In this document: one piece after another, positions 3,570-33,095 of the stretch
Layout: every line of letters starts with the position of its first letter
How positions within the stretch are numbered: position 1 is the stretch's first letter
Assembly: GCA_049720475.1 (NCBI GenBank)
Contig: JBNASH010000033.1
Span: 3,784-67,783, forward strand
Reading direction: 5' to 3'
Length of the DNA stretch: 64,000 nucleotides
Source of the DNA: Minisyncoccia bacterium
Lineage (GTDB): Bacteria; Patescibacteriota; Minisyncoccia; UBA6257; JAAZHW01
The notes under the pieces: model-generated
Database searches by the model: none
The model's input: the letters and a program-made list of their open reading frames with translations, nothing else
What the model was told of the DNA's origin: nothing
Translations under genes and position numbers: made by a program

Positions 3570-5095
<1,526 letters not shown>

Positions 5096-12157: not shown

Positions 12158-12165
12158 TAAAGCCG

Positions 12166-13929: not shown

Positions 13930-13957
13930 AATTTTTATTCTAATCATTTTTTTAAAA

Positions 13958-13990
13958 AAGAAAAATCCGCCCTACTGGCGGATTGACTTT
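13958..13990 (-). terminator. Rho-independent terminator for the two-gene operon at 13972..14611.
   Basis: On the minus strand, ATCCGCCAGTAGGGCGGAT is followed by TTTTCTTTTTT. Confidence 0.5.
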
Positions 13991-14611: not shown

Positions 14612-14656
14612 TTTATAAAACCTCCTTTATTAAATTTTTAATTTTTGCTAACTTTA

Positions 14657-14684
14657 ATATTACAATTTTTTATTTATTTGTCAA
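14657..14684 (-). promoter_or_regulatory. Near-consensus sigma70 promoter (TTGACA, 16 nt, TAATAT) for the small two-gene operon.
   Basis: The minus-strand sequence is cgTTGACAaataaataaaaaattgTAATATtaaag. Confidence 0.45.
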
Positions 14685-14715
14685 CGATTACTTCCTATCT
14701 TGCTTTTAATAATTT

Positions 14716-16023
14716 TTACCAATTGAAAATCAATTTAATGGTTCTCATTATAATTGCCAAATCAAACCAAAAAGATTGATTGCGAATATAATACAAATCA
14801 TATTCAAATTTTTTTAATTCATCTTCCAAACAAGCGGCATAACGATAATTTAATTGCGCCCAACCAGCCAAACCAGGCTTGATTAAATTTCTCAAATAAT
14901 AAATTGGCTTTTCTTTCACGCATAAATCAAAAAGTTCTTTTTCAATCGGCCGCGGCCCAACAAAAGACATTTCTCCTTTCAAAATATTAACTAACTGCGG
15001 TAATTCATCTAAATGCGTCTTTCTCAAAAATTTTCCCACCCTCGTAATTCTTTCATCATTCTCTTTTGACCATCGCGATGAATTAGAAACATTTTGATAC
15101 ATTGAACGAAACTTATAAATTTTAAACAACTTGCCATTTTGGCCAACACGCCAAGAAGAATAAAAAATTGGCCCCGCAGAATCAATTTTTATTGCCAAAA
15201 TAATCAAAGGCCAAAACGGCAAACTCACAACTAAAAAAATCAACGCCAAAATAAAATCGCAAACATCTTTAATAAAAAGATTAATTTTTTGATGATAGAG
15301 ATTAAAGTAATCCAAAAACCAATTTTCATCAACAAAATTTAATGGCACGCACTTAAAAATCAACGAATAAAAATCAGCCGTATCATAAATCTCAACTTTT
15401 TTAAACATCATCTTTAAAAGCACGTCCTTTAATTCTTTCTGAGAAGATAAATTATCAACCACAATCACTTTAATGCCATCTTTTTCAAACATTCTTTCCA
15501 CATCTTCCTTTTTTATGCCATCAATTTTTTCAATATGTGTTATAAGTTTATAACCCAATTGAGGTGATTCTTCTAAGTGTTTTTTGATTTCCTTTATTTC
15601 TTCGCTTTCGCCGATTAATAAAGTTTTATAAACCAGATGTCGAGAGAAAACCGAATAAAAAACTAGCCGCCAAACCAAAACAAAAACAGAAGAAAAAACA
15701 ATAATCAAGATTAAATTGGTTTTTGGCGTAATGATGGGGTAAAGATAAAAAATGATAATGGCTAAAACAACATTAATGATCTGTAATTTTGTTAAAGAAG
15801 ATATTATTTTTTTTCTTTCCCTAAAATTTATTAACTCATAAAAATGTCCTATGTAAAAAATAAAAATCCAAACTAAAAAAATTATGGAAAAAAGCTTCAA
15901 GTGAATAATTAAATAATCAGCGCTTAAATTTCTAATAATCGCCATTAAATAAAGTGAAAAATAAAAACAGATGATGTCGCCTATCACCAAAATAATTTTT
16001 CTAATTTTTTCCGCGAAAGACAT
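14716..16023 (-). CDS. Polyprenyl-phosphate sugar phosphotransferase (WbaP/WecA-like bacterial sugar transferase).
   Basis: N-terminal TM segments are followed by the C-terminal motifs DELPQLVNILKGEMSFVGPRP of the bacterial sugar transferase family. Confidence 0.8.
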   Translation of the reverse strand: MSFAEKIRKIILVIGDIICFYFSLYLMAIIRNLSADYLIIHLKLFSIIFLVWIFIFYIGHFYELINFRERKKIISSLTKLQIINVVLAIIIFYLYPIITPKTNLILIIVFSSVFVLVWRLVFYSVFSRHLVYKTLLIGESEEIKEIKKHLEESPQLGYKLITHIEKIDGIKKEDVERMFEKDGIKVIVVDNLSSQKELKDVLLKMMFKKVEIYDTADFYSLIFKCVPLNFVDENWFLDYFNLYHQKINLFIKDVCDFILALIFLVVSLPFWPLIILAIKIDSAGPIFYSSWRVGQNGKLFKIYKFRSMYQNVSNSSRWSKENDERITRVGKFLRKTHLDELPQLVNILKGEMSFVGPRPIEKELFDLCVKEKPIYYLRNLIKPGLAGWAQLNYRYAACLEDELKKFEYDLYYIRNQSFWFDLAIIMRTIKLIFNW

Positions 16024-16034
16024 ATTCGTCTTTA

Positions 16035-16940: not shown

Positions 16941-16945
16941 AATTT

Positions 16946-18241
16946 TTATTTAATAAAAACTCTCAAAAAAGACCGCGTTAAAACCACAGCTGAAAACATA
17001 CTCACCAAAACACCTATCAACAAAGTTAAAGCAAATCCTTTAATCATTGAACTGGTAAAATTATAAAGCACTAAACAAGTAATAATAGAAGATATATTGG
17101 AATCACGAATTGAAGGCCAAGCGCGACGAAAACCTTCTATTAAAGCGCGCTTTTTCTCCAAACCGCGTTTTATTTCTTCTTTATATCTTTCAAAAATTAA
17201 AATATTAGCATCAACCGCCATTCCAACCGACAAAATAAAACCAGCAATGCCGGATAATGTTAAAGTAACGGGTATTATTTTAAAGATAGAGAGATTAATA
17301 ATTGTATAGATAATTAAAGCCAAAGAGGCAACAAAACCAAGAAAGCCATACATTAAAATCATAAAAGCAATCACAACCAGCAAACCAATCAAGCCGGCTT
17401 TAATGCTAAGTTTTAAAAAGAATTCTCCTTGGAGAGCGCCCACTGATTGTTGAGAAATGAGTTTAATCGGTACTGGCAAAGCGCCAGCGTTTAAATTTTC
17501 AACCAGTTTTTTCGCCTCCTCAGCCGTGAATTTACCGGTAATCTGAGCCTGACCAGAACTAATTTCTTCCTGAACTACCGGCAAAGAAATTGGTTGACCA
17601 TCTAAATAAATCGCTAAAATTTTTCCTACATTCTTTTTGGTTAATTCGGCAAAAATTTTTGCGCCTTCATCATTAAATTCTAAACTCACCATTGGTTCAT
17701 AAGTGCGTGGATTGAAATCTAAACGAGCTGCCTTTAAATATTTACCCGTCAATAAAGGTTGCGATGGCACAAAATAAGGATCAACAAAAGCGTAATCAGG
17801 ATTTTTATTTTTTTGTTCCTCTAAAATTTTTTCTGTTTCTTCCTTTGGCCGCTCTTCGCGAAATTCTAAGTAGGGCGTTTCTCCGATCATTTGAATAGCC
17901 GAGGCAATATCTTTAACGCCGGCTAACTCAACATTTAAACGATAATCATTACCCACTTTGACCACTTCCACTCGCGGTTCACTCACTCCAAATAAATTAA
18001 CCCTTCGCTCAATAACATCGCGCAAACCATTCATTGCCGAATCACGATCTTTCGCTTCAACCTGCGATAAATCAGCCTCATAAATTAAACGCGTGCCCCC
18101 GCTTAAATCCAAACCTAAACGATACGGTTTTTTAAACCAATTGGGTAAAAAATTAAATTGGCCATAAGCAAATAGGCCACCAATAATTGCTAAAATTAAA
18201 ATGATAATAACAAAAATTAAATTCTTCGAATGTTCATTCAT
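16946..18241 (-). CDS. secD: Protein translocase subunit SecD.
   Basis: ...LGLDLSGGTRLIYEADL... with 6 C-terminal TM segments. Confidence 0.9.
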   Translation of the reverse strand: MNEHSKNLIFVIIILILAIIGGLFAYGQFNFLPNWFKKPYRLGLDLSGGTRLIYEADLSQVEAKDRDSAMNGLRDVIERRVNLFGVSEPRVEVVKVGNDYRLNVELAGVKDIASAIQMIGETPYLEFREERPKEETEKILEEQKNKNPDYAFVDPYFVPSQPLLTGKYLKAARLDFNPRTYEPMVSLEFNDEGAKIFAELTKKNVGKILAIYLDGQPISLPVVQEEISSGQAQITGKFTAEEAKKLVENLNAGALPVPIKLISQQSVGALQGEFFLKLSIKAGLIGLLVVIAFMILMYGFLGFVASLALIIYTIINLSIFKIIPVTLTLSGIAGFILSVGMAVDANILIFERYKEEIKRGLEKKRALIEGFRRAWPSIRDSNISSIITCLVLYNFTSSMIKGFALTLLIGVLVSMFSAVVLTRSFLRVFIK

Positions 18242-18410: not shown

Positions 18411-18767
18411 TTAGAAAATTTCAAGAATTTTTGGTAGGAAAACAAGAAAACCGACAATTAAGGCAGTTAAAGAAGCAACTAGCACAGCGGCCGCCACTAA
18501 ATCTTTTGCTACTTTCACAATCGGATTAATTTCCGGCCGCAAATAATCAAAACTTCTTTCCCAAGCAGTATTAATAATTTCCAAAGTCAAAACCAAACCC
18601 ATACTTAAAACAATCATCACCCATTCCAACAAAGAAATTTTAAACAAAATTCCAAGAATACAAACCAAAATAACAATAAAAAGCATCACACGGAAAGAAT
18701 GTCCCTTTATCGCCTCCTTCAAACCATCAAATGCAAAAGAAAAACTTTTTATCAATTTTTGAAACAT
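18411..18767 (-). CDS. dgkA: Diacylglycerol kinase / undecaprenol kinase family (DgkA-like).
   Basis: A 118 aa protein with 3 TM segments. The pattern ...LEWVMIVLSMGLVLTLEIINTAWE... is typical of prokaryotic DAGK. Confidence 0.6.
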   Translation of the reverse strand: MFQKLIKSFSFAFDGLKEAIKGHSFRVMLFIVILVCILGILFKISLLEWVMIVLSMGLVLTLEIINTAWERSFDYLRPEINPIVKVAKDLVAAAVLVASLTALIVGFLVFLPKILEIF

Positions 18768-18773
18768 AATTTT

Positions 18774-20174
18774 TTATCGCCAAGTTGGCAACCACAATCG
18801 CTGGAGATATTGTTGATCCGTTAAAGAAAGACCATAACTCAATGGCGCAAAATACAAAAAGGATTGAATAATAACAATAAAAATAACAATTAAAATCAAA
18901 GGTTTGATGCGCAAGAAAAACCATAATAAGAAGCCACTAATCAAAGTCATAAAAATAAAAGATGGAAAATAATGATAAATAAAAGCCGGCCGGGTAATAA
19001 AAACATAAGGCAAGAGGTTTAAAAGATAACCAAAGGTTAAGATGAGCAGCGGTTGGAAATAAATTGTTTTATCTTTAAATCGCAATTCATAAAGTAAAGC
19101 AAAAATAGCAAAAATAGCACATAAAAAACCCAACCACCAAATTAAAGGATTACCAATCAAATAAATTCTCTCATTCGTTTGATCACTAATATTTTTGTGC
19201 CATTCAAAAATAGGGCGATACATTATTGGCCAGCTATACCATTTCGAACTATAAGGATGACTTTGTTTAATGCTGGCATTAGCAGCAAACATTTTTACAT
19301 TTAATTCAATAATGCGTTTGATTAAATTTGGCGGTTCATATTTACCATAATATTGATTGCCCAACAAAGCGCTTTGCGATTGTGGGGATAGAAAAGCATC
19401 ATGATTTGGTCCGCCAGTATACGGCAAACTTAATAAATGGATAGCAAAAACCCCAAAATAAACCAAAACAAAAATAACAAACATTATTATTGATTCTTTA
19501 ATAAATAGTTGGAATTTTTTATGAGAAATTCTGTCCAACAACAAAATCAAAGCGCCGACAGCAACAAAAACCAAAGCCGTCCACTTGACCAAAACGCTAG
19601 CTGTTAAAAATAAACTGGCCAAGAATAATTCTGGAAAAGAATTAGCATCTAATTTTTTATAATCCCTCAAACGCAAAACAAAATAAATACCTAAAGCGCC
19701 AAACGCCAAAAGAAAAATATCGGTAAAAATATAGCGCGATTGAACTAAAATGGCGTTGTCAAAAATAATAAATAATGATGCCAAAAAGCCTGGCCATTTA
19801 TTGTAAAATAATCTTTTGCCAATTCCATAAACAGCCAAAACCAAAATTAAACTAAAAAACATTTCTACCGCTCTAAACAATTTATAAAAATCGCCTTTAT
19901 ATTTATTACCAATTTGGGAGAAATCAGTATTGTTTGTTTCATCAAAACCAAAAATTTTTCCAGTTGCTGCCAAAATCATTTTTGCCAGCGGCGGATGAAT
20001 ATCAAAATAAAATTCACCTTTGAAATAATTGGTTGACCAACGAGCAAAATAAACTTCATCAAAAACAACTTCATCCGGATGACCAAAATAAGGAATTCTA
20101 GTTGCAGCCGTTAAAATAATGAGGATTGTAATCAAAACCCATTCTTTTTGAAAAAATTTAAGCATTTTTTTCAT
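18774..20174 (-). CDS. GT39/GT83-type (PMT/ArnT-like) lipid-carrier-dependent glycosyltransferase.
   Basis: A DE motif in the first loop (HPDEVVFDEVYF) with ~11 TM segments, as in protein O-mannosyltransferase-like enzymes. Confidence 0.55.
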   Translation of the reverse strand: MKKMLKFFQKEWVLITILIILTAATRIPYFGHPDEVVFDEVYFARWSTNYFKGEFYFDIHPPLAKMILAATGKIFGFDETNNTDFSQIGNKYKGDFYKLFRAVEMFFSLILVLAVYGIGKRLFYNKWPGFLASLFIIFDNAILVQSRYIFTDIFLLAFGALGIYFVLRLRDYKKLDANSFPELFLASLFLTASVLVKWTALVFVAVGALILLLDRISHKKFQLFIKESIIMFVIFVLVYFGVFAIHLLSLPYTGGPNHDAFLSPQSQSALLGNQYYGKYEPPNLIKRIIELNVKMFAANASIKQSHPYSSKWYSWPIMYRPIFEWHKNISDQTNERIYLIGNPLIWWLGFLCAIFAIFALLYELRFKDKTIYFQPLLILTFGYLLNLLPYVFITRPAFIYHYFPSFIFMTLISGFLLWFFLRIKPLILIVIFIVIIQSFLYFAPLSYGLSLTDQQYLQRLWLPTWR

Positions 20175-23070: not shown

Positions 23071-24117
23071 TTACGGCAAAGGGGGTGCTTCTGGCTCTCC
23101 TTTTTTATTAATCTCTTTAATTGTTTCTTCAATAACAATAATAGTTGGCAAAGCAATTAAAACGCCCACCACGCCACCTAATTTAGCACCAATCAATAAA
23201 CCCAAAATAACAATTACTGGATTAAACCCAATGGTTTTCTTCATCGTCAAAGGAATTACCAAATCATTTTCTAATCGCTGAATTAAAATAAAAGCAAGTG
23301 CTGTCCATAAGGCCAACGGCACTGATTGCGTTAAAGCAACTAAAGTTGCTACAATGCCAGCCAAAATTGGACCAACCACTGGAACTAATTCACAAAACGC
23401 ACCAAATAACGCCAAAACAAAAGCGTATCTTACACCCAACAAAAGCAAAGCCGCTAAATCCAAAACACCAATGAAAGTACTTAACAAAAGCTGAACCCGC
23501 AACCATTTCCCCAATCGCAATTTCGAACGATACCAAATTTTTAATACTGTTGTTTCAATGCTTGCCGGCAAAACAAATTTTATAAAATCCGCCACACCAT
23601 CTTTTTTAAGCAAAAGATAAAAGGAAATTAAAAAGACGGTTACAACCGAAACAATGCCGCCACCCAAATTAAACAAAATAGCAAAAAACCTGCCGGCATC
23701 CTGAAACAAAGAACCTTGATAAGTTGATAAGAAATCCAAAATTTTCTCACCTAATTGAGAAGTGGTGGCTGACCCAAAAAACTTTTCTGAAAATCCTGGC
23801 AATAAATTACCAATGTTTAAAATTTGCTCATAAACAATCGGAAAAGAAAAATACAAAATGGCAGCCAAAAGAAGCAAGATGCCTAAATAAATAATAATTG
23901 CGCCCAAAAAACGCGGCCAGCGCTTTTTTTCAAACCAATCAACCAAAGGCGTTAAAGCCGCCGCTACAATAATCGCCACAAAAAGCATCACAAAAACTGA
24001 CCTTAAAACATAAATTAAGGCCAAAATAATCACAAGCAAAAACAACCTCCAAAAACTCATCCACGATATTTCCAATGTTTGCCTCTCTTTAGCCATCAGT
24101 TTTATTATAAAAATCAA
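23071..24117 (-). CDS. AI-2E family transporter (PerM/YhhT, UPF0118).
   Basis: 348 aa with 8 TM segments and an AI-2E-like conserved C-terminal region. Confidence 0.65.
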   Translation of the reverse strand: MIFIIKLMAKERQTLEISWMSFWRLFLLVIILALIYVLRSVFVMLFVAIIVAAALTPLVDWFEKKRWPRFLGAIIIYLGILLLLAAILYFSFPIVYEQILNIGNLLPGFSEKFFGSATTSQLGEKILDFLSTYQGSLFQDAGRFFAILFNLGGGIVSVVTVFLISFYLLLKKDGVADFIKFVLPASIETTVLKIWYRSKLRLGKWLRVQLLLSTFIGVLDLAALLLLGVRYAFVLALFGAFCELVPVVGPILAGIVATLVALTQSVPLALWTALAFILIQRLENDLVIPLTMKKTIGFNPVIVILGLLIGAKLGGVVGVLIALPTIIVIEETIKEINKKGEPEAPPLP

Positions 24118-24188
24118 AAATAATTTAGCAAATAGAAACTCTGGGAAACTCAGTTTTTATTCTTTAAATCCTGGGTTATAATAAAAAT

Positions 24189-25274
24189 ATGAAAATTTTA
24201 CTTGTTATTACACACGGAAAAATTGGCGGAGCTACTAATATGGTCTATTGGCTGGCGAAAGGAATAAAAGACGCTGGAGAAAATGTTGTGGTGAGTTTTG
24301 GTGAAGGAGAATATCTTAGACAAAAACTCGAAAAAGAAAATATTCCCTACTACAATTTCAAATGGCTCAAGAGAACGCACAATCCTTTTGCTAATCTCTG
24401 TTTTATTGCGGAAATTAAAAAATTCCTGGACAAAAACCATTTTGACATCATTCATTTGAATTCCACCAATGCTTTATTTGGTGCAATTGGTGCCAAACTT
24501 TCTCAATCAAAACCAAAAACCATTTTTACTTTTCACGGTCTTTCAATTTTAGATCCTAATTATAAAAAACTTTTCCTTTTGAAAATATTTTATTGGTTAT
24601 TATTCAAATTTTTGCTAATTTTTGTTGATATTCCAGTTTTTGTTTGTCAAAAAAATTTAGAAATTGCGCAAAAAATCGGCCTAATAAAAAAGGGAGTGGT
24701 AATTTACAATGGGATAGAAAAACCTGAATTTTTAGACAGAGAACGAGTTAGAAAATTTTTTGAAGAAAAATTAAAAATGTCTTTGAAAGATATTTTTGTT
24801 ATCGGCTCAATTGGCAGATTAGACTATTCAAAAAATTATGAGTTTTTAATTGGGATTTTTCCAGAAATTCTAAAAATTAAAGAAAAGGCCATTTTAATTA
24901 TTATCGGCGAAGGACCAGAAAGAAAAAAATATGAAAATTTAATTGCAAATTTGAATTTGAAAAATAAAATTTTTCTTATCGGAGAAATTCCAAACGCTTC
25001 ACAATATATAAAAGGTTTTGATTTGTTTGTTTTGCCATCGCGTTATGAAGGATTATCAGTTACTCTAATCGAAGCTGTATTTGCTCAAATACCAATTTTA
25101 GCTTCAGATGTAGGTGGAAATAAAGAAATTGTCGGGGAAGAACATACTTTCAACCTCAATAACAAACAAGATTTTTTAGAAAAAATTAAAAAAATTAAAA
25201 ATTCAGAAGAAAGAGGAAGTGTTTTCAAAATTGAAGAAATGATCAAGAAATATTTATCTTTTTATTTATCCTAA
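24189..25274 (+). CDS. Glycosyltransferase family 1 (GT4-type).
   Basis: The EX7E region EGLSVTLIEAVFAQIPILASDVGG. Confidence 0.75.
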   Translation: MKILLVITHGKIGGATNMVYWLAKGIKDAGENVVVSFGEGEYLRQKLEKENIPYYNFKWLKRTHNPFANLCFIAEIKKFLDKNHFDIIHLNSTNALFGAIGAKLSQSKPKTIFTFHGLSILDPNYKKLFLLKIFYWLLFKFLLIFVDIPVFVCQKNLEIAQKIGLIKKGVVIYNGIEKPEFLDRERVRKFFEEKLKMSLKDIFVIGSIGRLDYSKNYEFLIGIFPEILKIKEKAILIIIGEGPERKKYENLIANLNLKNKIFLIGEIPNASQYIKGFDLFVLPSRYEGLSVTLIEAVFAQIPILASDVGGNKEIVGEEHTFNLNNKQDFLEKIKKIKNSEERGSVFKIEEMIKKYLSFYLS

Positions 25275-26465
25275 TAATTTCTTCCATTGATCAATAATCT
25301 TCTCTGCTGAAAAATCAACTGCTCTTTCTTTTGCTTTTTTTGAATATTCTTTTCTTAGACTCTCATTCTTTAAAAATTCCTTTAAGGTTTCAACCCAAAT
25401 TTTTTCCTTTTCTGTTAGAGGATCTTCTGCGTTTTGAAATTTATTCTCGAAAGCTGGCATTAAAATTCCGTATTCTCCAAATTCTGGTTTTTGAATCTTT
25501 TTTAACAAATTAGTATTCGGGGCCAAAATTTCCCTCGGACCAGATTGGCAATCAGAACTAATTATCGGAACCCCACACGCCAAAGATTCTAATAAAACCA
25601 TGGGAAAGCCCTCCCACAAAGAAGGTAAAACAAAAAGAGCTGATTTTGCTATAAATTTAAAAGGATTTTTTTGGAATCCCAAAAAGTAAACATCAAAATC
25701 CGAACTTAAATCATCCTTATCCCACATAAAAGTCTTTAAACCAAGTTCTGTGGAAATTTTAAATAAATAATTTCTTAATTCACCATCTCCCAATATAACA
25801 AGTTTTAACATTGGAAAATCGTCTTTTAATGCTTTATAAATTCTAAGCAAAAACCACTGCCCCTTTTGTCTAGTTAAACGCCCAATATTTATAAGGACAG
25901 GATTGCAAAAAATATCCTCATATTCTTTTAATTCTTCCTGCATTTTTTCTTGTATATCTTTAAAATCAATTGGATTATAAATAACTTTAATTTTTTGTGG
26001 TTGAATTTTATAGAATTTTTCAAGTTCACTTTTTATACCCTCAGAAACCGAAATTATTATATCCGCTTTAGGATAAAGAATTCTTGTTAATAAATTATAT
26101 GGATGCAACTTTGACCTTCCTACAGATTGGGACATATGTACAGAAATAATGGTTTTATGTTTACTTAACAAAGAAGCTAAAATATTAACATAATTTGCTC
26201 GCTCTAACATCGAAACTATTATAGAATCACTCCGAATTTTTTTAGCTAATCTCCAAGCATAAATTGGAATAAAAAGACTCTTCAAAATAGGACTGAATTT
26301 AATGTGATGATCTGATAAGAATTCTATTTGTTGGTTATTTAATTGGTACTTTACATCTTTTTCTAATAGGAAAATTTTAGAAAAATTCAAAAAATTGTAG
26401 AGATTTATAGCTACTCTTTCAGCGCCTCCAAAGGCTAATGAATTAATAAGAATGTATCTATTCAT
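25266..26465 (-). CDS. Glycosyltransferase family 1 (GT4-type).
   Basis: EGFPMVLLESLACGVPIISSD. Confidence 0.75.
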   Translation of the reverse strand: MNRYILINSLAFGGAERVAINLYNFLNFSKIFLLEKDVKYQLNNQQIEFLSDHHIKFSPILKSLFIPIYAWRLAKKIRSDSIIVSMLERANYVNILASLLSKHKTIISVHMSQSVGRSKLHPYNLLTRILYPKADIIISVSEGIKSELEKFYKIQPQKIKVIYNPIDFKDIQEKMQEELKEYEDIFCNPVLINIGRLTRQKGQWFLLRIYKALKDDFPMLKLVILGDGELRNYLFKISTELGLKTFMWDKDDLSSDFDVYFLGFQKNPFKFIAKSALFVLPSLWEGFPMVLLESLACGVPIISSDCQSGPREILAPNTNLLKKIQKPEFGEYGILMPAFENKFQNAEDPLTEKEKIWVETLKEFLKNESLRKEYSKKAKERAVDFSAEKIIDQWKKLLG

Positions 26466-27400
26466 TTTATATACAAATAATAAATAATTTCTATAATGTG
26501 TCTGGCTTTATAAGGAGAAATAAGATAGATAAGCCATTTAAAATAGTTATGAAGTTTGGGGCTAAATTTTATGATTATATTTTCTAAATATTGAGATAGA
26601 TAATCTAAAAATTTTGCAAAAAAATTAATTTTTCCATTTAAAACTTTTTTTAGATCAACTTCGCTCACTTCTTTATTTTTTCTTAAATTGTCTGCTATTA
26701 AAAAAGTCAATTTTAGCTGCATTGGTCGTTGGACAGATATTCTACCTCTTCGATACTCTACTCTATATTTAAGAAGAGGTTCATTAATGAAGCCTATTTG
26801 GCACCCATTTAAAACCGCTCGTGCTAATAATTCGTAATCCTCAACTGTTTGAAATTGAGGACGATAATAATTCAATTTTGTAATAAAAGATTTTCTAAAA
26901 AACCAAGTAGGGTGCGGGATTGGACTTATACCGGCGCAAAGTTTTTTTATGATTGTTTCTTTTGTTAAGCTTTTCGATTCGTTCAAAATCTGATTTTGGG
27001 GATTTATAAAAATTACCTTGCTACCAACCAAATCAATTTGTGGATTTTGTTTCATGTAATTTAATTGTGTTTCGAATCTATGCAATAAAGCAATATCATC
27101 AGCGTCCATACGGGCTATAAATTCTCCTTCGGCTAAGGAAATTGCTTTATTTAATGATTGTGGCAATCCCAAATTTTTCTCATTAATAATCAATCTTGCT
27201 CTGTCATCGTTGTTTAAACAATTTTTTACGGCATTATAAACTCTCAAAAATTCCGCATCATCTTTTCCTGTATCTATAACAATTAATAATTCAAATTTTT
27301 TAAAAGTTTGATTGAGTACGCTCTTTATAGATTCCTGAACATATTCATCCTTCTCTTTAAATACGGGTAAAATTACTGAAAGAGTAATTTTGTGAAACAT
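26462..27400 (-). CDS. Glycosyltransferase family 2.
   Basis: LSVILPVFKE ... ARMDADD (DxD) ... QTVEDYEL. Confidence 0.75.
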   Translation of the reverse strand: MFHKITLSVILPVFKEKDEYVQESIKSVLNQTFKKFELLIVIDTGKDDAEFLRVYNAVKNCLNNDDRARLIINEKNLGLPQSLNKAISLAEGEFIARMDADDIALLHRFETQLNYMKQNPQIDLVGSKVIFINPQNQILNESKSLTKETIIKKLCAGISPIPHPTWFFRKSFITKLNYYRPQFQTVEDYELLARAVLNGCQIGFINEPLLKYRVEYRRGRISVQRPMQLKLTFLIADNLRKNKEVSEVDLKKVLNGKINFFAKFLDYLSQYLENIIIKFSPKLHNYFKWLIYLISPYKARHIIEIIYYLYIK

Positions 27401-27434
27401 GCCTCTATCATAAAAAATAACGACGCTATAAAAA

Positions 27435-28460
27435 TTAAGCTTTAAAAATTCTTCTTAATTTAAACTTTATTCTACTTTTGTAAATTTTTTTTAAATCCTT
27501 CCACGATAAATCCCTTTTTATCCCATCAATTAGATCACATGTATAAAAACATGGCTGACATTTTTTTGATATAATTATATTTTTAATTTCTTCCACTTTA
27601 TTTGAATTTTGTTGAAATAAATTTATTAAACTTAAGTCATAATCCTTTAAATTGCCCAGACACAAATCTGCAACTAATCCATCACAAGGATAAACATTTC
27701 CATCGCTATCTATAACTATTTTTTTTATTAATCCATAACATGGAAAAATTGTTTGACCATTATTAATATTGCGAATTAAATAATATTGGGGGAGGTATTC
27801 TGGATAAATATGTGAGAGTTTTTGAAGGATCGTCTCCAACTCTCGCAAGTCTTTTGAAGAAAATTTTGTAAAACCTTGATTGCCATCTAAATCCCCATAT
27901 CTAGAATCCATACGCCCAATTCCCATAATAATATCTACCCCCCGACTTCTCCAATAATGAAAAAATGGTATTGTTTCCTGAATATTAAAAGGGAAGGCTG
28001 TATAACTTAAAGAAAATGTGATATTATTCTTTTTTAAAAAATAAATTAGATTTTCTATTTTTTGATAATTTCCCACTATATTGCGAGAAAAATCATGAAT
28101 TTGCTGAAATCCATTGCAAGACAAGGAAATATCAAAAGGAATTTTCTTTTTTTTCAATAAAAGTACGTCTCTTTTTATCTTATCTATTAAAATTCCATTT
28201 GTGGCAAAAGATATTCTTGCTCCTGAGGTGCGATGAATAATTTCTGCAATTTCAACAAAATTTTCTTTTAAAGAAACTTCACCTCCTGTTAAATAAACTA
28301 TTTTAGCTTTTACATTGGAATAGATTTTTTTTAGGCTTTCTATCTTTAGAATTTCATCATTGCTCTTTTTTATCTCACCTCGCCAGATAGAACATGTGAT
28401 ACATTTCGAATTGCATCGCCATGTTAAATATTGAATTATAGTGTCAAATTGTAATGACAT
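27435..28460 (-). CDS. Radical SAM enzyme with a C-terminal SPASM/twitch domain.
   Basis: CNSKCITCS is the CX3CX2C cluster and GGEVSL is the SAM-binding motif. The C-terminal Cys cluster CYGLIKK...PCDGL...CLGNL...CQPCFYTCD is SPASM-like. Confidence 0.75.
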   Translation of the reverse strand: MSLQFDTIIQYLTWRCNSKCITCSIWRGEIKKSNDEILKIESLKKIYSNVKAKIVYLTGGEVSLKENFVEIAEIIHRTSGARISFATNGILIDKIKRDVLLLKKKKIPFDISLSCNGFQQIHDFSRNIVGNYQKIENLIYFLKKNNITFSLSYTAFPFNIQETIPFFHYWRSRGVDIIMGIGRMDSRYGDLDGNQGFTKFSSKDLRELETILQKLSHIYPEYLPQYYLIRNINNGQTIFPCYGLIKKIVIDSDGNVYPCDGLVADLCLGNLKDYDLSLINLFQQNSNKVEEIKNIIISKKCQPCFYTCDLIDGIKRDLSWKDLKKIYKSRIKFKLRRIFKA

Positions 28461-29102
28461 TTATTTTTGTTTTTTTCGACACTTAAAATAAAAAGTTTTC
28501 ATATAGCTTAAATTTCTAACACATTTAAAGTTTTCGATGATAAAATAACGTCCTAATATTTTTGAAATTTGTACAAAAGTAAAATGATGTGGATGAGGCT
28601 TATCTTCCCAAATGCCAAATATCTCTAAAATTTTTTCAATAATTAAAAAGGGTTTGGAATAAGTATTGATTAAAAAATTTAACTCCCCGTCATTTTTTAA
28701 TATTCGATGCATTTCTCTTAAACCAAGCTCTGGATCTTCGATATGATCTAAAACGTTGATACAAAAAACTATATCAACATAATCGTCTTCTAAAGGAATA
28801 GCCTCCGCGGTAGCATTAATAAATTTAGTATTAGAATCTAAAGTATATTTTTTACTATATAAATTTATAAGAGGGTCTAATCCTATTTTTTCTTTGGCAT
28901 CCGTAATATAATGTACAACCCCCCTTGGTCCACATCCAACATCAATAATAGTTTTGTTTTTGGTATTAATACCACTGAGCAAATATTTCTTCCATCTTTC
29001 TTCTTCAACTTCATTCAATGCTAAGGAATTCCAAAAATTTAACTCTGCATCTTGAGCCTCCTTCCATCTATTTTTTTTATCTTTTTTTTGTATTATTACC
29101 AT
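28461..29102 (-). CDS. Class I SAM-dependent methyltransferase.
   Basis: IIDVGCGPRG (motif I) ... DIVFCINVLDHIEDP (motif II/III region). Confidence 0.75.
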   Translation of the reverse strand: MVIIQKKDKKNRWKEAQDAELNFWNSLALNEVEEERWKKYLLSGINTKNKTIIDVGCGPRGVVHYITDAKEKIGLDPLINLYSKKYTLDSNTKFINATAEAIPLEDDYVDIVFCINVLDHIEDPELGLREMHRILKNDGELNFLINTYSKPFLIIEKILEIFGIWEDKPHPHHFTFVQISKILGRYFIIENFKCVRNLSYMKTFYFKCRKKQK

Positions 29103-29128
29103 ATTTTCATAAAACTTTTTAAATGCTG

Positions 29129-30409
29129 CTAAATTTTTAGATCTTTTTGTTGAGTGGCTTCTAACTTAATAATCTTATCTCTAAACCAAGTCAATAATCC
29201 AAAATTTGCCGCTTGGGATAAAATACTAGTGAAAGCGGCGGCGAACATGCCGAATTTTGGAATAAGCAAGAAATTAAGAACTAAGTTAATTATAGCACAA
29301 AAAGCCGTAAGATAAAAATTAAGCCATTGCTTGTTATAAGCAATATAAAGATAGCTTAAATAAACGGCTGGGAAGGTAAAAACAATAATCCAGCTTAAAA
29401 ATTGTGCCAAGGAAACTGATGGTTCATACTGTTTGCCAACAAAGAAGGGAAGAATTGGCGCAAAAATAAAGATTAATAAAGCAATTAAAAACCCTAAAGC
29501 TAAAAAGCCAATAAGCGCTTTTTGGGTAATTTTTTTGATTTTTTCTTTATCATTGATATTGGCGGAAAGATATGGGAAAAGAGCAATCATTATTAAACTC
29601 GGCAAAAGATTGATTAATAATATTCCTTTAGTAATAAGGGAATAATAACCAACTTCAGTTACTCCGCGCATTTTACCCAGCATAATTTGATCAGTCGAAA
29701 ATAAAATAAAATTTAAGAGACCAAACAAAGCAACTGGCAAACCATTAATAAATAATTGTTTGAAAAGATTTTTATCAAGTTGCGGCAAAAAATAATTTTT
29801 AAAAGGTTTTATCATCAAGCCAGCCGTAATAAAACTCAAAAGCACACCAATTAAATAACCCACGCTTAAAGAAATAATATTTTTATAAATTAAAATTAGA
29901 AAAATGCTAAATGCCATCACCGAAAAACTTTCAACCAAAATTACTATAAATTCCTTCTCCATTTTTTGAATGGCGCGCAAAAAAGAAACAAACAAATCTT
30001 TAATATTCGCCACAAAAAGATAAATTGAAATCACCAAAAAATTAAGACGGAATTCGGGATTTTGAAAAACAAAAAGTCCCAAGATTGCCGCAATTAAACA
30101 TAAAGAAGTGGTCAAAATTCTAAACAAAAACGCGGCGCGCGTATATTTTTCCCTTTCGACTGCTTGCTGATAATCGCGAATGATTAAAGTATTAATGCCC
30201 CAATCAGCAAACAAGAAGAAAAGCGTGCCAATTGATAAAATATAATTGAAGGTTCCAAAGCCTGTTGGTCCTAAAACGCGCGCTGAAACCAAAACTAAAA
30301 TCAACTTGAAAAGACGGCTCAAAATCTGACTAAACAAAAGCCAAAAACTATTTTTGAAAAAAGTTTGCTTGGGCGAAATGTTATTAAAAAGTAAATTTTC
30401 TAAATCCAT
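29129..30409 (-). CDS. Wzx-like oligosaccharide flippase (MOP superfamily).
   Basis: 426 aa with ~12 TM segments and a polysaccharide biosynthesis protein pattern, inside a glycosyltransferase cluster. Confidence 0.7.
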   Translation of the reverse strand: MDLENLLFNNISPKQTFFKNSFWLLFSQILSRLFKLILVLVSARVLGPTGFGTFNYILSIGTLFFLFADWGINTLIIRDYQQAVEREKYTRAAFLFRILTTSLCLIAAILGLFVFQNPEFRLNFLVISIYLFVANIKDLFVSFLRAIQKMEKEFIVILVESFSVMAFSIFLILIYKNIISLSVGYLIGVLLSFITAGLMIKPFKNYFLPQLDKNLFKQLFINGLPVALFGLLNFILFSTDQIMLGKMRGVTEVGYYSLITKGILLINLLPSLIMIALFPYLSANINDKEKIKKITQKALIGFLALGFLIALLIFIFAPILPFFVGKQYEPSVSLAQFLSWIIVFTFPAVYLSYLYIAYNKQWLNFYLTAFCAIINLVLNFLLIPKFGMFAAAFTSILSQAANFGLLTWFRDKIIKLEATQQKDLKI

Positions 30410-30412
30410 AAA

Positions 30413-30991
30413 TTAGGAGTTTTTCGCCTTTTCCACTCGTTCTACGTATTCACCTGTTTCAGTATTTACTCTAATAATATCTCCTTCGTTGATAAATAAT
30501 GGCACGGCAATTTTAGCACCAGTTTCAATTGTCACTGTTTTCGTGCCTCCTTGTGCTGTATCGCCTTTTATTCCCGGTGGCGCTTCTATAACTTTAAAAT
30601 CCATTTTAATTGGCAATTCGATATTGATAATTTTTCCGTTAAATTTAAAAGCGTCGATTGGAACTCCAGCTTTCAAAAAATTTTTATTATCCCCCAAAAC
30701 CGTTTCGTCTAATTGAAATCTTTTTGATCGATCGCCGGCTTCGCAAAACCAATATTCGCCGCGATGCTGATACAAAAACTCAACACTCAAGCGCTCGAGA
30801 TCGGCTTCTTCAAATTCTTCGGAATGCTGAATGTTTCGATCAATAACTTTGCCGTTAATTAAATTTTTGAGCCGCGTTTGAAGAACCGGTTTTCTCTGTT
30901 GCATCTTTAAAAAATTAGCGCTTAAAACTTCGTACGGCTCATCATCAATAATAATAATTGTTTTTGGTTTTAAATCATTGATTCCCAACAT
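30413..30991 (-). CDS. efp: Elongation factor P.
   Basis: 192 aa with three OB/KOW-like domains and conserved EF-P blocks (KPGKG-like loop ... GDTAQGGTK). Confidence 0.9.
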   Translation of the reverse strand: MLGINDLKPKTIIIIDDEPYEVLSANFLKMQQRKPVLQTRLKNLINGKVIDRNIQHSEEFEEADLERLSVEFLYQHRGEYWFCEAGDRSKRFQLDETVLGDNKNFLKAGVPIDAFKFNGKIINIELPIKMDFKVIEAPPGIKGDTAQGGTKTVTIETGAKIAVPLFINEGDIIRVNTETGEYVERVEKAKNS

Positions 30992-31054
30992 ATTATCAAT
31001 AATCTTAAAAAATATTCGCTAACTGTCAATAAAAATTTTCCTCTTGAGAAAATT

Positions 31055-31300
31055 TCAGAGGGAAATATCAAAAATTTTTTGCCTGCTTTTCCCTCCTTTT
31101 AATAAATTAATTCGGGAAGGCGCAATATCAAAAAATTCTGCCAATAATTTAACAGCTGCTTCATTGGCTTTATTTTCTTTGGCCGGCGCTGTTACCAAAA
31201 TTTCAAATTGATTATCGCCAATTTTTTTAATTTTGTTTACTGAAGCATTAGGTTTTACTTTCACAAAAAAATGCATATTTTTAAAACGCCTATTTAACAA
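31055..31300 (-). CDS. DUF167/YggU-family small protein.
   Basis: VKVKPNAS...FEILVTAPAKENKANEAAVKLLAEFFDIAPSRINLLKGGKSRQK is typical of UPF0235. Confidence 0.55.
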   Translation of the reverse strand: MLNRRFKNMHFFVKVKPNASVNKIKKIGDNQFEILVTAPAKENKANEAAVKLLAEFFDIAPSRINLLKGGKSRQKIFDISL

Positions 31301-31324
31301 AATGGTAACAAAGCTAAATTTTGA

Positions 31325-32992
31325 TTATTGACTCTCTTTATTTTCTTCTTTGTTTTCTTCTTTCTGGCTTAATTTAGCAAGTGATTCCCTTAAAGCCCTT
31401 TTTAATTCATCTACATTAGCTTGGGTTTTGGGTTTCTCTGTTGGTTGTTTGCTAATCAATTTTTTGCCGCTACTTTCAAAAATGTTTTTAACAATTTTTG
31501 TTTCTAAACGCAAAGGTTTTGTCGGCGGAATAATTTCGCCTTTCTCTACTCCGCTTAAACACGTTTTACAAAAAACCGGCCTTTTTCCATCTGGTTGAAA
31601 CGGCACTTCTGTTTCTGCTCCACACACCCAACAAAAATCAATATATGTTTTTTTCTTCTCTTTCTTCTCTTTTTTCTCTTCCTCATTATTTTCCTCGTTT
31701 CCCTCAAGCCATTCAGCGCTAATCTGTTTTTCTACTTCGCTGCGCGGCTGACAATAAATTTTTCTGGTGTTTTCTATAATTTGATTCTTAAAATTAACCT
31801 CGGGCTTTAATCGAGGTGGCAGAGTGACGGCTGAAAATGCTTTAGAAGTTATTCCATCAATCATTAATTTAAGATAAATATTGTATTTGGGCAGATTAAC
31901 TAAATCGGTTGCTGTAAATTCTGGCGCAAATTCTTTTTCCAGCCATTCTGCATCCTCTGCTCCTACTCGAAAAACAACAAAAGTGCCAACATTACCAAAA
32001 ATAGCTGCCTTTACGGATTCGGGCAACTGCCCAATGTATTGATGAGAAATAATTAGGGATAAATGGTATTTGCGCGCTTCGGATAAAATATTGGAAAAGG
32101 ATTCGGTAGCAAAAGTTTGAAACTCATCAACATATAAAAAGAAATCGGGCCGCTCTTCTGGTGGAACATCGGCTCGGCTCATCGCTGCTTGTTGAATACG
32201 CGTTATCATCATCGCTCCCAACAACGCCGAATTAACTTCTCCAATTCGTCCTTTGGACAAATTCACAATTAAAATTTTTCCCTCATCCATTATTTTTCTG
32301 ATATTAAAAGAAGATTTTGGTTGCCCAACAATATTTCTTACCAAAGGATTTGTCAGAAACTGCCCTACTTTATTTTGAATCGGCGCAATTGCTTCTACTT
32401 GAAATTTTTCATGATAACGGGCAAATTCATTAACCCAAAAATTTTTTACCACCGGATCCTTTAGGTTTGATACAATGTAATCGCGATATTTTTTATCTGT
32501 CAGCAATCGCATTATGCCCAACAGCGTTGAATTAGGATATTCAAGAAGCGCCATTAAACAATTGTTTAAAATATATTCCATTCGGGCGCTCCACACATCC
32601 GGCCAAATTTTCTTGAAAATTTCCAAAATACCACTGGCCACTAAATGTCTTTGCTCATCGTTGACTGATTCTAATGGATTAAAAGCAATGGGATAATTTG
32701 TATCGTGTGGACAAAAATAAATCACATCGTCAACGCGCTTTTCAGGAATATGCTCAAGCAATTGCTCGGCTGATTCGCCATGAGGATCAATAAAAGCCAA
32801 ACCAAATCCCGATTCAATATCAGAAATAGCCATATTGGTTAACATAACAGTTTTGCCCATGCCGGTTTTACCAATTGCATACATATGCTTTCGGCGGTCA
32901 TCTAATTTGATGCCAAATTTCACTTTCTGATTTCGAAAATTGGTCTCGGCAAAAAAATTGATGTTTTCTTCGCTGTATTTTGCTTTCTTCAT
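31325..32992 (-). CDS. P-loop NTPase of the TraG/VirD4/TrwB-HerA clade (type IV coupling-protein-like) with a C-terminal CxxC...CxxC zinc ribbon.
   Basis: Walker A AIGKTGMGKT, a Walker B-like FFLYVDEFQ, and the ribbon CWVCGAE...FCKTC near the C-terminus. Confidence 0.5.
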   Translation of the reverse strand: MKKAKYSEENINFFAETNFRNQKVKFGIKLDDRRKHMYAIGKTGMGKTVMLTNMAISDIESGFGLAFIDPHGESAEQLLEHIPEKRVDDVIYFCPHDTNYPIAFNPLESVNDEQRHLVASGILEIFKKIWPDVWSARMEYILNNCLMALLEYPNSTLLGIMRLLTDKKYRDYIVSNLKDPVVKNFWVNEFARYHEKFQVEAIAPIQNKVGQFLTNPLVRNIVGQPKSSFNIRKIMDEGKILIVNLSKGRIGEVNSALLGAMMITRIQQAAMSRADVPPEERPDFFLYVDEFQTFATESFSNILSEARKYHLSLIISHQYIGQLPESVKAAIFGNVGTFVVFRVGAEDAEWLEKEFAPEFTATDLVNLPKYNIYLKLMIDGITSKAFSAVTLPPRLKPEVNFKNQIIENTRKIYCQPRSEVEKQISAEWLEGNEENNEEEKKEKKEKKKTYIDFCWVCGAETEVPFQPDGKRPVFCKTCLSGVEKGEIIPPTKPLRLETKIVKNIFESSGKKLISKQPTEKPKTQANVDELKRALRESLAKLSQKEENKEENKESQ

Positions 32993-33095
32993 AATTCTTT
33001 TTTATTGTAATTTAAAATAATGAAAAACTCAAATACAAGCTTTAATCTTGTTTAATCCGATTTTTTATAGTAAAATCCATTATTGTATGACAGAA

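Follow-up and report, generated by a model that had tools for sequence, protein, structure and literature searches.

What does a radical SAM (rSAM) enzyme do among the flippase and glycosyltransferases of a surface-glycan locus? The question arises from one gene in the 64,000-nucleotide stretch of DNA analysed here, hereafter called the window, which comes from a tiny, uncultured Minisyncoccia bacterium of the candidate phyla radiation (CPR). The initial annotation had placed this gene, together with an adjoining methyltransferase (MT) gene, in a glycan locus, and Pfam matches agreed, with Wzx on one side and GT2 and GT4 glycosyltransferases on the other. The genes concerned were as follows.

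14716..16023, reverse strand, Bac_transf-type initiating phosphoglycosyl transferase (PF02397, 211.6 bits), ~9 kb from the glycan locus
24189..25274, forward strand, convergent GT4 glycosyltransferase (361 aa; Glycos_transf_1, 108.8 bits), conserved edge of the locus
25266..26465, reverse strand, PglJ-like GT4 glycosyltransferase (399 aa; Glycos_transf_1, 95.5 bits)
26462..27400, reverse strand, GT2 glycosyltransferase (312 aa; Glycos_transf_2, 84 bits), 34 nt downstream of the rSAM gene
27435..28460, reverse strand, radical SAM enzyme with C-terminal twitch domain (341 aa; NCBI MGB9847786.1, 'radical SAM protein [Minisyncoccia bacterium]')
28461..29102, reverse strand, class I SAM-dependent methyltransferase (213 aa; Methyltransf_11, 58 bits)
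29129..30409, reverse strand, Wzx-type flippase (426 aa; Polysacc_synt PF01943, 109 bits)

The wzx gene was the first of the glycan operon after efp. The MT and rSAM genes shared a reading frame with a 0-nt spacer, the MT stop codon TAA (28463-28461) running directly into the rSAM ATG (28460-28458) at a TAA/ATG junction; the 1-nt overlap reported earlier was wrong. The GT2 and PglJ-like GT4 genes overlapped by 4 nt. In the NCBIfam profiles, the GT2, likely the functional partner of the rSAM enzyme, was EpsE/TuaG-like with a score under the cut-off, and the GT4 scored 200 bits against the PglJ model (cut-off 500). Hallmarks of a Wzx/Wzy-type locus were thus present, namely Wzx, one GT2, two GT4 and, 9 kb off, the Bac_transf protein, a candidate initiator of the Wzx-dependent glycan that is putatively linked to the rSAM locus. 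Neither a Wzy polymerase nor an O-antigen ligase/oligosaccharyltransferase was identified among the 28 window proteins scanned, and two large window proteins (9177-10892 and 10889-12157) had no Pfam match. A promoter/terminator scan of 24000-31400 returned counts equal to shuffled expectation; its sole noteworthy item was a TTGACA-16-TAAGAT site upstream of efp.

The 341-aa protein was correctly recognised as an rSAM protein. Its CX3CX2C motif (C16-x3-C20-x2-C23, within 'CNSKCITCS') and GGE motif (G59-G60-E61) were both in place, and Pfam Radical_SAM (PF04055) matched at 54.9 bits against a cut-off of 29.5. The three cysteines were invariant in 161/161 family members, and the GGE motif was also invariant. 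The partial (beta/alpha)6 TIM-barrel fold was recovered, and the AF2 model contained a complete barrel opening with strand 1. The window protein lacked a basic N-terminal extension of ~30-45 aa found in all close relatives. No housekeeping or other curated family was matched, the best NCBIfam score being 53 bits against cut-offs of 230-850. Identity to solved enzymes was 14-22%, and at least 3,700 50%-identity clusters were nearer to the window protein than any solved enzyme, with roughly 3,700 at E 1e-30 or better. At the C-terminus, the tail carried a net charge of +9 over 23 residues; an amphipathic membrane anchor was rejected there because the hydrophobic moment was only 0.33, leaving a weak hint.

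The C-terminal Cys cluster had been described as 'SPASM/twitch', of which the twitch part stood and the SPASM part did not. SPASM domains have 7 or 8 conserved Cys (CX9-15GX4C ... CX2CX5CX3C ... C) and two [4Fe-4S] clusters, and twitch domains have 3 or 4 conserved Cys on a truncated SPASM-like beta-hairpin and helix with one [4Fe-4S] cluster (PMC9477430). Across the 161 family members, five C-terminal Cys were conserved (C241, C259, C301 and C304, plus C308 at 88%), compared to seven in SPASM, and the C-terminal motif was CX2CX3C. Despite a Pfam SPASM match (28.4 bits, cut-off 21.5), the domain thus did not fit the two-cluster SPASM pattern. Its four invariant Cys aligned one-to-one with the twitch Cys of BtrN and are predicted to bind a cluster; in the AF2 model a hairpin spanned 247-257 and was followed by helices. 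The sequence thus predicts two clusters, a [4Fe-4S] cluster for SAM cleavage and an auxiliary one ligated entirely by Cys.

Conservation of the glycan setting was also observed among relatives of the rSAM protein in the neighbourhood comparison proposed earlier: all ten independent contexts (10/10) were glycan/polysaccharide loci, carrying Wzx, Wzy, NeuB, Bac_transf, DegT, SDR epimerase, GT2, GT4 or PMT_2 genes. In 8/10 a glycosyltransferase was fused to, or directly beside, the rSAM relative. Among the 150 best representatives there were 18 long relatives, and 12 of these 18 were GT2 fusions; the others included GT1/GT4 (2), an FkbM methyltransferase (1) and a Maf/MptE-like domain (1). Further fusions comprised an rSAM-GT2 protein (P0011) and a polysaccharide pyruvyl transferase-rSAM protein (P0201). 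Since the family is so often fused to or adjoining glycosyltransferases, the rSAM enzyme probably remodels a surface-glycan sugar. Some relatives were fused to TPR or Maf-like domains, which hints at glycoprotein substrates over lipid-linked ones. A profile scan with the close-family alignment gave 25 genome-contig loci, which had 21-29% identity and belonged to other SPASM families; phmmer found no GT or Wzx neighbours there, and these loci were set aside as context evidence. Plasmid matches from a tblastn search of PLSDB were all at <=26% identity and represented anSME, MftC or sactipeptide-like genes.

The neighbouring gene was likewise called correctly as a class I SAM methyltransferase, with Methyltransf_11 (PF08241) at 58 bits against a cut-off of 21.2 and the GxGxG SAM-binding motif present as 'DVGCGPRG'. 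No specific equivalog was reached in the NCBIfam profiles; it is probably a sugar methyltransferase. Its nearest relative (P0204, 34% identity) adjoined a GT4 and a B12-rSAM gene. Pairing of MT and rSAM genes recurred in just 2/10 contexts (adjacency in L042 alone), plus the one FkbM fusion, and none of the closest MT relatives lay beside twitch rSAM genes. A fixed two-gene module was therefore not supported. Stop read-through, or an ancestral MT-rSAM fusion, was rejected, given that the family HMM scored the read-through product at 458.5 bits and the rSAM protein alone at 460.9. The MT tail 'NLSYM...' loosely resembled the N-terminal extension 'NISYL...' of rSAM relatives, and a single TAA separates the two same-frame genes.

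Comparison with close relatives (L037-L039) revealed fine-scale variation at this locus. Three further features are needed here.

25700..29190, unstranded, strain-variable low-GC cassette containing MT, rSAM, GT2 and the 5' part of the PglJ-like GT4, defined by nucleotide similarity to L038
27938..27943, reverse strand, G6 homopolymer in the rSAM gene (codons CGG GGG G, rare-codon)
28919..28924, reverse strand, second G6 homopolymer, in the region of the MT gene encoding the GxGxG SAM-binding motif (codons AGG GGG G)

Nucleotide similarity to L038 ended at 29193 and returned at 25697, and the GC content of the cassette was 0.278 compared to 0.338 for the window. In the same slot (EF-P/Wzx ... 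GT4/AI-2E), L037-L039 carried GT4-MT-AsnB-GT2-MT, with the flanks kept (EF-P 95% and TrwB-like 93% identical). Identity to the L038 counterparts was 80% for Wzx, 67% for the convergent GT4 and 50% for the GT4 at 25266..26465; the window GT2 shared only 28% identity with the one encoded in the alternative cassette. Because close relatives have a different cassette in the same slot, MT-rSAM-GT2 is an accessory module, low in GC, within a glycan locus that varies. A Pacebacteria MAG (L008) held remnants only, a 66-aa rSAM and a 54-aa GT2 fragment. In a 99.6%-identical contig from another sample (L040), the rSAM tract was G7, splitting the gene into ORFs of 186 aa and 163 aa; this G6/G7 difference may be phase variation or sequencing error. 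No length variant of the MT tract was observed. Besides this indel, the rSAM gene had 0 substitutions between the two samples and wzx had 14. Given the frameshifted copy and the Pacebacteria remnants, the rSAM gene may be dispensable or decaying.

Taken as a whole, we favour, with reasonable confidence, an accessory glycan-tailoring twitch radical SAM enzyme encoded in a three-gene cassette of a Wzx-dependent surface-glycan locus. A role in the glycan pathway is highly probable, and we would put a sugar C-H as its target at somewhat better than even. The enzyme is most likely a glycan-tailoring sugar oxidase, dehydratase or epimerase; dehydrogenation specifically is doubtful. With no characterised member in the clade, we infer substrate and chemistry from context and distant similarity, and likewise the stage at which the enzyme acts (on a lipid-linked or a nucleotide sugar). 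The initial annotation had proposed a non-RiPP, anSME/BtrN-like enzyme in a surface-glycan pathway, and the BtrN-like twitch domain and the relatives in glycan loci support this. Its 'dehydrogenase type', acting on a sugar or a protein side chain, needs widening: dehydrogenation is one of several possible chemistries, and the side chain stays among the candidate substrates.

In the proposed pathway, the glycan grows on what is probably a polyprenyl-phosphate carrier, and the GT2 would extend it by a sugar. Reductive cleavage of SAM by the rSAM enzyme would yield the 5'-deoxyadenosyl radical, which would take H from a C-H of the sugar added by the GT2, or of its nucleotide-sugar precursor, with the auxiliary cluster handling the electron of the substrate radical. 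A BtrN-like reaction would yield a keto sugar, and one resembling BlsE or AprD4 (1,2-diol dehydration or decarboxylation) a deoxy-keto sugar; epimerisation of the sugar is the other option. Methylation of the glycan by the class I methyltransferase would probably follow, and Wzx would flip the finished unit. More broadly, and tentatively, a large uncharacterised twitch clade may be dedicated to radical sugar tailoring in glycan assembly, physically coupled to GT2 enzymes and often joined to them in one chain; in this CPR bacterium of episymbiont type it would occur in a swappable, serotype-like cassette that is perhaps switched on and off when a rare-codon poly-G tract slips.

Other readings of the gene were weighed against the same evidence. 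The enzyme could act upstream, on a soluble nucleotide-activated sugar, with the GT2 transferring an unusual keto, deoxy or epimerised donor (cf. DesII, BlsE, BtrN). The characterised sugar-acting twitch or related rSAM enzymes BtrN, BlsE, DesII and AprD4 all use soluble substrates, and nucleotide-sugar enzymes do lie beside some relatives (an SDR epimerase/dehydratase in L033, a DegT aminotransferase in L043). However, the window cassette encodes no nucleotidyltransferase, dehydratase or aminotransferase, and the frequent GT2 fusions and polybasic termini better fit action at the membrane on the transferase product, even if donor channelling could still account for them; we consider a soluble substrate unlikely. 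A further question is whether the substrate is a sugar at all. Sequence and fold neighbours included SkfB, anSME, SuiB, CteB, ChlB and EpeE, the solved peptide-modifying SuiB, SkfB and anSME scored nearly equal to BlsE, some family members carried the TPR and Maf-like fusions typical of protein glycosylation, and a PMT-family protein O-mannosyltransferase was located 5 kb from the rSAM locus. These could point to a peptide or protein maturase, either RiPP-type (sactipeptide, streptide, epimerase) or anSME-like with a protein side chain as target, perhaps in a glycoprotein or in the substrate of a glycosyltransferase. A precursor peptide had been judged missing on first reading, and the small-ORF check agreed: the gaps beside the rSAM and MT genes were 34, 0 and 26 nt, leaving no room for a precursor gene, and all small ORFs of >=20 aa lay inside coding genes. 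Nor was there an RRE/PqqD-like N-terminal domain, the cluster motif beginning at residue 16, while a peptidase or ABC exporter was found in 0/10 related contexts and no sulfatase among the 28 window proteins scanned. RiPP maturase models reached 28-53 bits against cut-offs of 300-850, the anSME model (TIGR03942) 42.3 bits against 349.45, and the family has five Cys where anSME and most RiPP maturases have a seven-Cys SPASM domain. Maturation of a peptide or protein is therefore improbable.

The variability of the locus raises the matter of whether the gene works at all. The missing N-terminal extension of all close homologues, the frameshifted copy in L040 and the rSAM and GT2 remnants in L008 could be read as signs of ongoing loss, the gene then being a passenger that is decaying or does not function within a hypervariable locus. 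Against this, the window ORF is intact and keeps all catalytic motifs and 20/20 family-invariant residues, its modelled barrel is complete from strand 1, and between samples the rSAM gene had no substitutions besides the indel, against 14 in wzx, making decay quite improbable. Chance placement of a housekeeping cofactor-biosynthesis enzyme (MoaA, AhbC/AhbD, NirJ or PqqE-like) is extremely improbable. These families did appear among weak NCBIfam and PDB matches, but at scores 5-15 times under the family cut-offs and covering mostly the N-terminal core; moreover, the gene is missing from close relatives that keep the flanks, and the contexts and fusions of its family are glycan-related.

Radical SAM enzymes that act on sugars are known in antibiotic biosynthesis and in two pathways to lipid head groups. 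A literature search for characterised rSAM enzymes in O-antigen, capsule or Wzx loci, or in CPR glycans, found no case. The enzyme described here, a glycan-tailoring one in the reading we prefer, probably remodels a surface-glycan sugar by radical chemistry not yet characterised by anyone. If the clade does tailor glycans, bacterial glycobiology would gain a new reaction type, in which an assembled sugar is oxidised, deoxygenated or epimerised anaerobically and without NAD, and the Wzx-dependent synthesis of surface glycans would gain a new enzymatic step. The many single-chain rSAM-GT2 proteins would offer convenient reconstitution targets. CPR/Patescibacteria meet host cells and phages at their surface, and a swappable, possibly phase-variable glycan cassette would be evidence that these organisms diversify their surfaces in a serotype-like manner.

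Glycan or LOS loci were already known to contain uncharacterised rSAM genes. On a 36-kb plasmid of Brachyspira hyodysenteriae, for example, such genes lie amid GT1/GT2 and rhamnose-pathway genes and vary between strains (PMC4267127). That plasmid resembles the present locus in having rSAM genes within LOS/glycosylation blocks subject to strain variation; its genes are not detectably of the same family, however, and tblastn against PLSDB at E 1e-5 gave no Brachyspira record. Among solved enzymes, anSME was the top Foldseek match (E 3e-13, TM 0.62) and the second PDB profile match (E 3e-22), and its reaction is a radical dehydrogenation that involves no leader peptide. It differs in its seven-Cys SPASM domain with two auxiliary clusters and in its substrate, a sulfatase Cys or Ser. 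BlsE is the cytosylglucuronate-acting radical SAM enzyme of the blasticidin S pathway. This sugar-acting twitch enzyme (PDB 7vob) was the best structural match. Identity was only 14%, however, the profile match was limited to the core (E 2e-9), the C-terminal Cys motif of BlsE is CxCxxC, and its pathway leads to a nucleoside antibiotic, not a surface glycan.

BtrN, the 2-deoxy-scyllo-inosamine dehydrogenase of the butirosin pathway, is the founding twitch radical SAM dehydrogenase. It was the best solved match of the family twitch domain (E 4e-6), and C241, C259, C301 and C304 aligned with BtrN C169, C187, C232 and C235; the window protein shared neither its full-length similarity nor its aminocyclitol context. 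The substrate of BtrN resembles a carbohydrate, and the enzyme has a single auxiliary [4Fe-4S] cluster (PMC13598754). HpnI/HpnK/HpnJ and calditol synthase (Cds) are a precedent for a lipid-linked sugar that a radical SAM enzyme alters once a glycosyltransferase has acted (PMC13459092). HpnJ and Cds belong to other radical SAM subfamilies, and the HpnJ model was absent from our NCBIfam matches; their substrates are membrane-lipid head groups as opposed to a flipped polysaccharide unit, and their proposed chemistry is ring contraction. What the hopanoid cyclitol ether and archaeal lipid pathways have in common with the proposed one is its logic, in that a glycosyltransferase installs a sugar which a radical SAM enzyme then rearranges.

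The radical SAM protein (rSAM) and the class I methyltransferase (MT) lie on the minus strand in a same-direction row of genes, efp, wzx, MT, rSAM, GT2 and GT4. Their placement between Wzx and glycosyltransferases in the initial annotation agreed with both the ORF map and Pfam scores. The NCBI names of the rSAM, MT, GT2 and flippase entries are generic.

Genes of the glycan locus, with Pfam scores in bits (cut-offs) and NCBI entries
30413-30991, minus strand: efp
29129-30409, minus strand: Wzx-type flippase; Polysacc_synt 109 (28.2); MGB9847788.1, 'flippase'
28461-29102, minus strand: class I methyltransferase, 213 aa; Methyltransf_11 58 (21.2); MGB9847787.1, 'class I SAM-dependent methyltransferase'
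27435-28460, minus strand: radical SAM protein, 341 aa; Radical_SAM 54.9 (29.5), SPASM 28.4 (21.5); MGB9847786.1, 'radical SAM protein'
26462-27400, minus strand: GT2; Glycos_transf_2 84 (23.3); MGB9847785.1, 'glycosyltransferase'
25266-26465, minus strand: GT4; Glycos_transf_1 95.5 (26.4)
24189-25274, plus strand: convergent GT4; Glycos_transf_1 108.8 (26.4); an AI-2E-family transporter lies beyond

The annotated cluster motif (C16-x3-C20-x2-C23, in 'CNSKCITCS') and GGE motif (G59-G60-E61) were both present. The reported 1-nt overlap between MT and rSAM was not; the MT stop codon TAA (28463-28461) directly precedes the rSAM ATG (28460), such that the genes abut with a spacer of 0 and share one reading frame with a single TAA between them (28458-28463). 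The gaps around the pair were 34 nt, 0 nt and 26 nt and every small ORF of at least 20 aa sat within coding genes. A stand-alone precursor peptide gene therefore has no space here, in line with the absence of such an ORF remarked on previously.

No curated NCBIfam model claimed the rSAM protein at its cut-off. The top scores were 53 bits (WgkB and AhbC, cut-offs 650), followed by anSME (42 bits, cut-off 349) and MoaA (37 bits, cut-offs 231-325), and matches were mostly restricted to the N-terminal core. A word-indexed homology search of 5.8 billion proteins retrieved only seven close relatives (41-51% identity, 366-388 aa), with further relatives forming a tail at 25-30% identity. In a 15-member alignment, C16, N17, S18, C20, C23, W26, G59-G60-E61, T87, N88, D123, R126, C241, G254, C259, G269, C301 and C304 were invariant and C308 nearly so. 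Across 161 single-domain members aligned by hmmalign, the only conserved Cys columns were 16/20/23 (100%), 241/259/301/304 (97-99%) and 308 (88%). SPASM domains carry seven or eight Cys and bind two clusters, twitch domains three or four Cys and bind one (PMC9477430). By this definition, the five conserved C-terminal Cys mark rSAM as a predicted twitch-type enzyme, although the Pfam SPASM profile matches; of the SPASM/twitch cluster annotated initially, the twitch part thus stands and the SPASM part, with five conserved Cys rather than seven, does not.

BtrN was the top solved match to the C-terminal-domain profile alone (E 4.4e-6), and the four invariant C-terminal rSAM Cys aligned with its twitch Cys 169, 187, 232 and 235 (native positions), which are the auxiliary-cluster ligands in the BtrN structure. 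The AlphaFold2 model was confident (pLDDT 86.5, pTM 0.86) and Foldseek placed anSME first (E 3e-13, TM 0.62), then SkfB, ChlB, CteB, MoaA and BlsE. All solved enzymes were distant (14-22% identity), and they settle the architecture, a predicted two-cluster twitch rSAM, not the reaction. Relatives carry a basic, amphipathic N-terminal extension that the window protein lacks; these extensions and the C-terminal tail of rSAM (charge +9) hint weakly at membrane association. An origin of the extension in a read-through MT-rSAM fusion was rejected, the family HMM showing no added homology across the stop.

The family is tied to glycan loci and to GT2. All ten independent contexts analysed were polysaccharide-type loci, and in eight a glycosyltransferase was directly adjacent or fused to rSAM. 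Neither a peptidase or exporter pair nor a conserved small ORF occurred in any of the ten.

Genomic contexts of family members (L, contigs or loci of relatives; P, pooled homologous proteins)
Window: MT, rSAM, GT2
L001-L004 (P0007, 42% identity): unknown 406-aa protein, rSAM, Wzy_C; locus also with Wzx, NeuB, PIG-L, acetyltransferase, GT2, GT4, methyltransferase
L005 (P0003): Wzx, GT, rSAM; then convergent GT4, methyltransferase, UDP-GlcNAc 2-epimerase
L008 (Pacebacteria MAG): GT4, 66-aa rSAM remnant, 54-aa GT2 remnant, MT
L031 (P0011): rSAM-twitch-GT2 as one 578-aa polypeptide
L033 (P0008): GT4, SDR epimerase, rSAM, GT2, polysaccharide deacetylase, then Bac_transf
L035 (P0010): GT2, GT2, rSAM, PMT_2
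L041 (P0185): pyruvyl transferase, GT2, Wzx, GT4, then divergent rSAM
L042 (P0181): GT2, MT, GT2, B12-rSAM, GT4, rSAM, MT, rSAM
L043 (P0182): MT, GT4, oxidoreductase, ATP-grasp, SDR, HAD, DegT, rSAM

The remnants in L008 (2115-2521; Candidatus Pacebacteria, CALHPI010000028.1), the first an N-terminal piece of a family rSAM (47% identical) and the second directly after it, look like a decayed rSAM-GT2 pair between GT4 and methyltransferase. An rSAM/SPASM, class I methyltransferase, rSAM/SPASM order was common to two unrelated metagenomic glycan loci (L005 10114-12689; L042 7001-10072), the second rSAM of each triplet belonging to another, more distant subfamily (40-50 bits against the family profile).

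At E <=1e-30, the family profile matched 3,711 clusters (HMMER, 1.84 billion cluster representatives), a scale on which the solved anSME and SkfB would rank worse by many orders of magnitude. Lengths of at least 480 aa were found in 25 of the 150 best representatives (26 of pooled P0001-P0167, counting P0011). Among the 18 of these long relatives scanned against Pfam, 12 had a GT2 domain, N- or C-terminal to the rSAM module, two carried GT1/GT4 domains, one an FkbM-type methyltransferase and one TPR repeats with an MptE/Maf-like domain, while four were tandem rSAM duplications only. P0201 joins a polysaccharide pyruvyl transferase to an rSAM domain. The strongest sign that the clade works alongside glycosyltransferases comes from these fusions, and glycosyltransferases are its conserved association. 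MT itself is a generic class I enzyme with no NCBIfam equivalog and few detectable relatives (<=34% identity), found beside GT4 and B12-rSAM in L046, while those in L044 and L045 have unrelated surroundings. An MT directly adjoining a family rSAM recurs in L042, in addition to the one FkbM fusion; the MT-rSAM pairing is plausible but, on these comparisons, not a conserved module.

The rSAM gene belongs to a variable cassette. Both flanks were kept in three close-relative contigs, L037, L038 (GCA_026415775.1, 'Patescibacteria group bacterium') and L039, in which the wzx-to-GT4 slot (11800-17900) held GT4-MT-AsnB-GT2-MT (AsnB, amidotransferase) versus MT-rSAM-GT2 in the window (25700-29190).

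Protein identity, window versus L038
TrwB-like ATPase: 93%
EF-P: 95%
Wzx: 80%
GT2: 28%, non-orthologous
GT4 (minus strand): 50%
GT4 (convergent): 67%
AI-2E transporter: 82%

Nucleotide similarity to L038 ended at 29193 and returned at 25697, and cassette GC was 0.278 against 0.338 for the window. Flanks that are conserved around a divergent, low-GC centre are the pattern of O-antigen and capsule loci, the swap being a serotype-like exchange in Patescibacteria (CPR), of which Minisyncoccia are part. Beside efp, the TrwB/TraG-like coupling-protein ATPase (31325-32992, minus strand; 93% conserved in relatives) has a Lys/Glu-rich tail and, at its C-terminus, a zinc finger of the treble-clef type. 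Between it and a tRNA synthetase gene, relatives hold a 2.85-kb segment (L038 5158-8011) missing from the window (32993-33047), encoding another radical SAM protein (426 aa, Radical_SAM + Fer4_12) together with an unknown protein of 373 aa and an ORF of 64 aa.

Three further genes lie 5-13 kb away from the glycan locus and could be part of one surface-glycosylation system with it:
14716-16023, minus strand: Bac_transf initiating phosphoglycosyl transferase
18411-18767, minus strand: DAGK-family (undecaprenol/diacylglycerol) kinase
18774-20174, minus strand: PMT-family (GT39, GT-C) protein O-mannosyltransferase

No Wzy or ligase was found among the window proteins scanned. Elsewhere, two adjacent minus-strand ORFs (9177-10892, 571 aa; 10889-12157, 422 aa) had no Pfam match at E 1e-4. 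The window holds five tRNA genes and a complete bacterial 16S rRNA gene (3569-5099, minus strand). A 23S or 5S gene is missing from its 64 kb, the rRNA genes being unlinked.

L040, a contig of 5,197 nt that comes from a different sample (SRR25293831), was 99.6% identical to the window. Its rSAM gene differed solely in a G7 tract (2784-2790) in place of G6 (27938-27943), frameshifting it into 186-aa and 163-aa ORFs. The window has six G or C runs of at least 6 bases (~three expected by chance), including two in one tRNA gene, one in rSAM and one in MT (28919-28924), such that rSAM and MT hold two of the four non-tRNA runs. In both tracts, the rarest Arg codons (CGG 6.4%, AGG 5.8%) precede the rarest Gly codon (GGG 10.8%); the arrangement resembles a contingency locus. 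Real phase variation at the rSAM tract is possible but doubtful; with G6 short for slippage and one indel between two assemblies, the difference could be a sequencing error or fixed mutation.

The frameshifted copy, the lacking N-terminal extension and the L008 remnants might also indicate a decaying gene, but rSAM motifs are intact and substitutions absent, which makes decay highly improbable. A housekeeping cofactor enzyme is effectively excluded, since the cassette varies between close relatives. The evidence speaks against a peptide or protein target, which is improbable; TPR and Maf-like fusions leave room for a glycoprotein, but recognition domain, precursor, peptidase and exporter are lacking, as is a sulfatase among the window proteins scanned, and the conserved C-terminal Cys number five, not seven. 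Action on a soluble nucleotide sugar rather than a lipid-linked glycan is somewhat less unlikely. The non-RiPP, anSME/BtrN-like role in a glycan pathway proposed initially is thus supported in outline by the twitch Cys, glycan contexts and GT2 fusions, and rSAM is a genuine member of a large twitch-rSAM clade that is coupled to glycosyltransferases and has gone unstudied.

In such a pathway, GT2 would add a sugar and rSAM would cleave SAM afterwards, or act on the corresponding nucleotide sugar, the 5'-deoxyadenosyl radical taking hydrogen from a sugar C-H and the fully Cys-ligated auxiliary cluster passing on the electron. The reaction could be dehydrogenation giving a keto sugar, as in BtrN, dehydration or decarboxylation, as in BlsE or AprD4, or epimerisation. 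MT probably O-methylates the glycan; C-methylation beside a new keto group is speculation.

rSAM is a good target for enzymology, and a CPR bacterium with a variable and perhaps switchable cassette deserves note, although nothing here would yet greatly surprise a specialist. No characterised radical SAM enzyme from a Wzx/Wzy glycan locus, or from glycan biosynthesis in CPR, turned up in full-text literature searches. Uncharacterised rSAM genes in LOS/glycosylation blocks have already been noticed, e.g. on a Brachyspira plasmid (PMC4267127), whose block is not detectably of the same family. Precedent for the proposed order, a glycosyltransferase followed by an rSAM enzyme on a lipid-linked sugar, comes from HpnI/HpnK/HpnJ and calditol synthase (PMC13459092).
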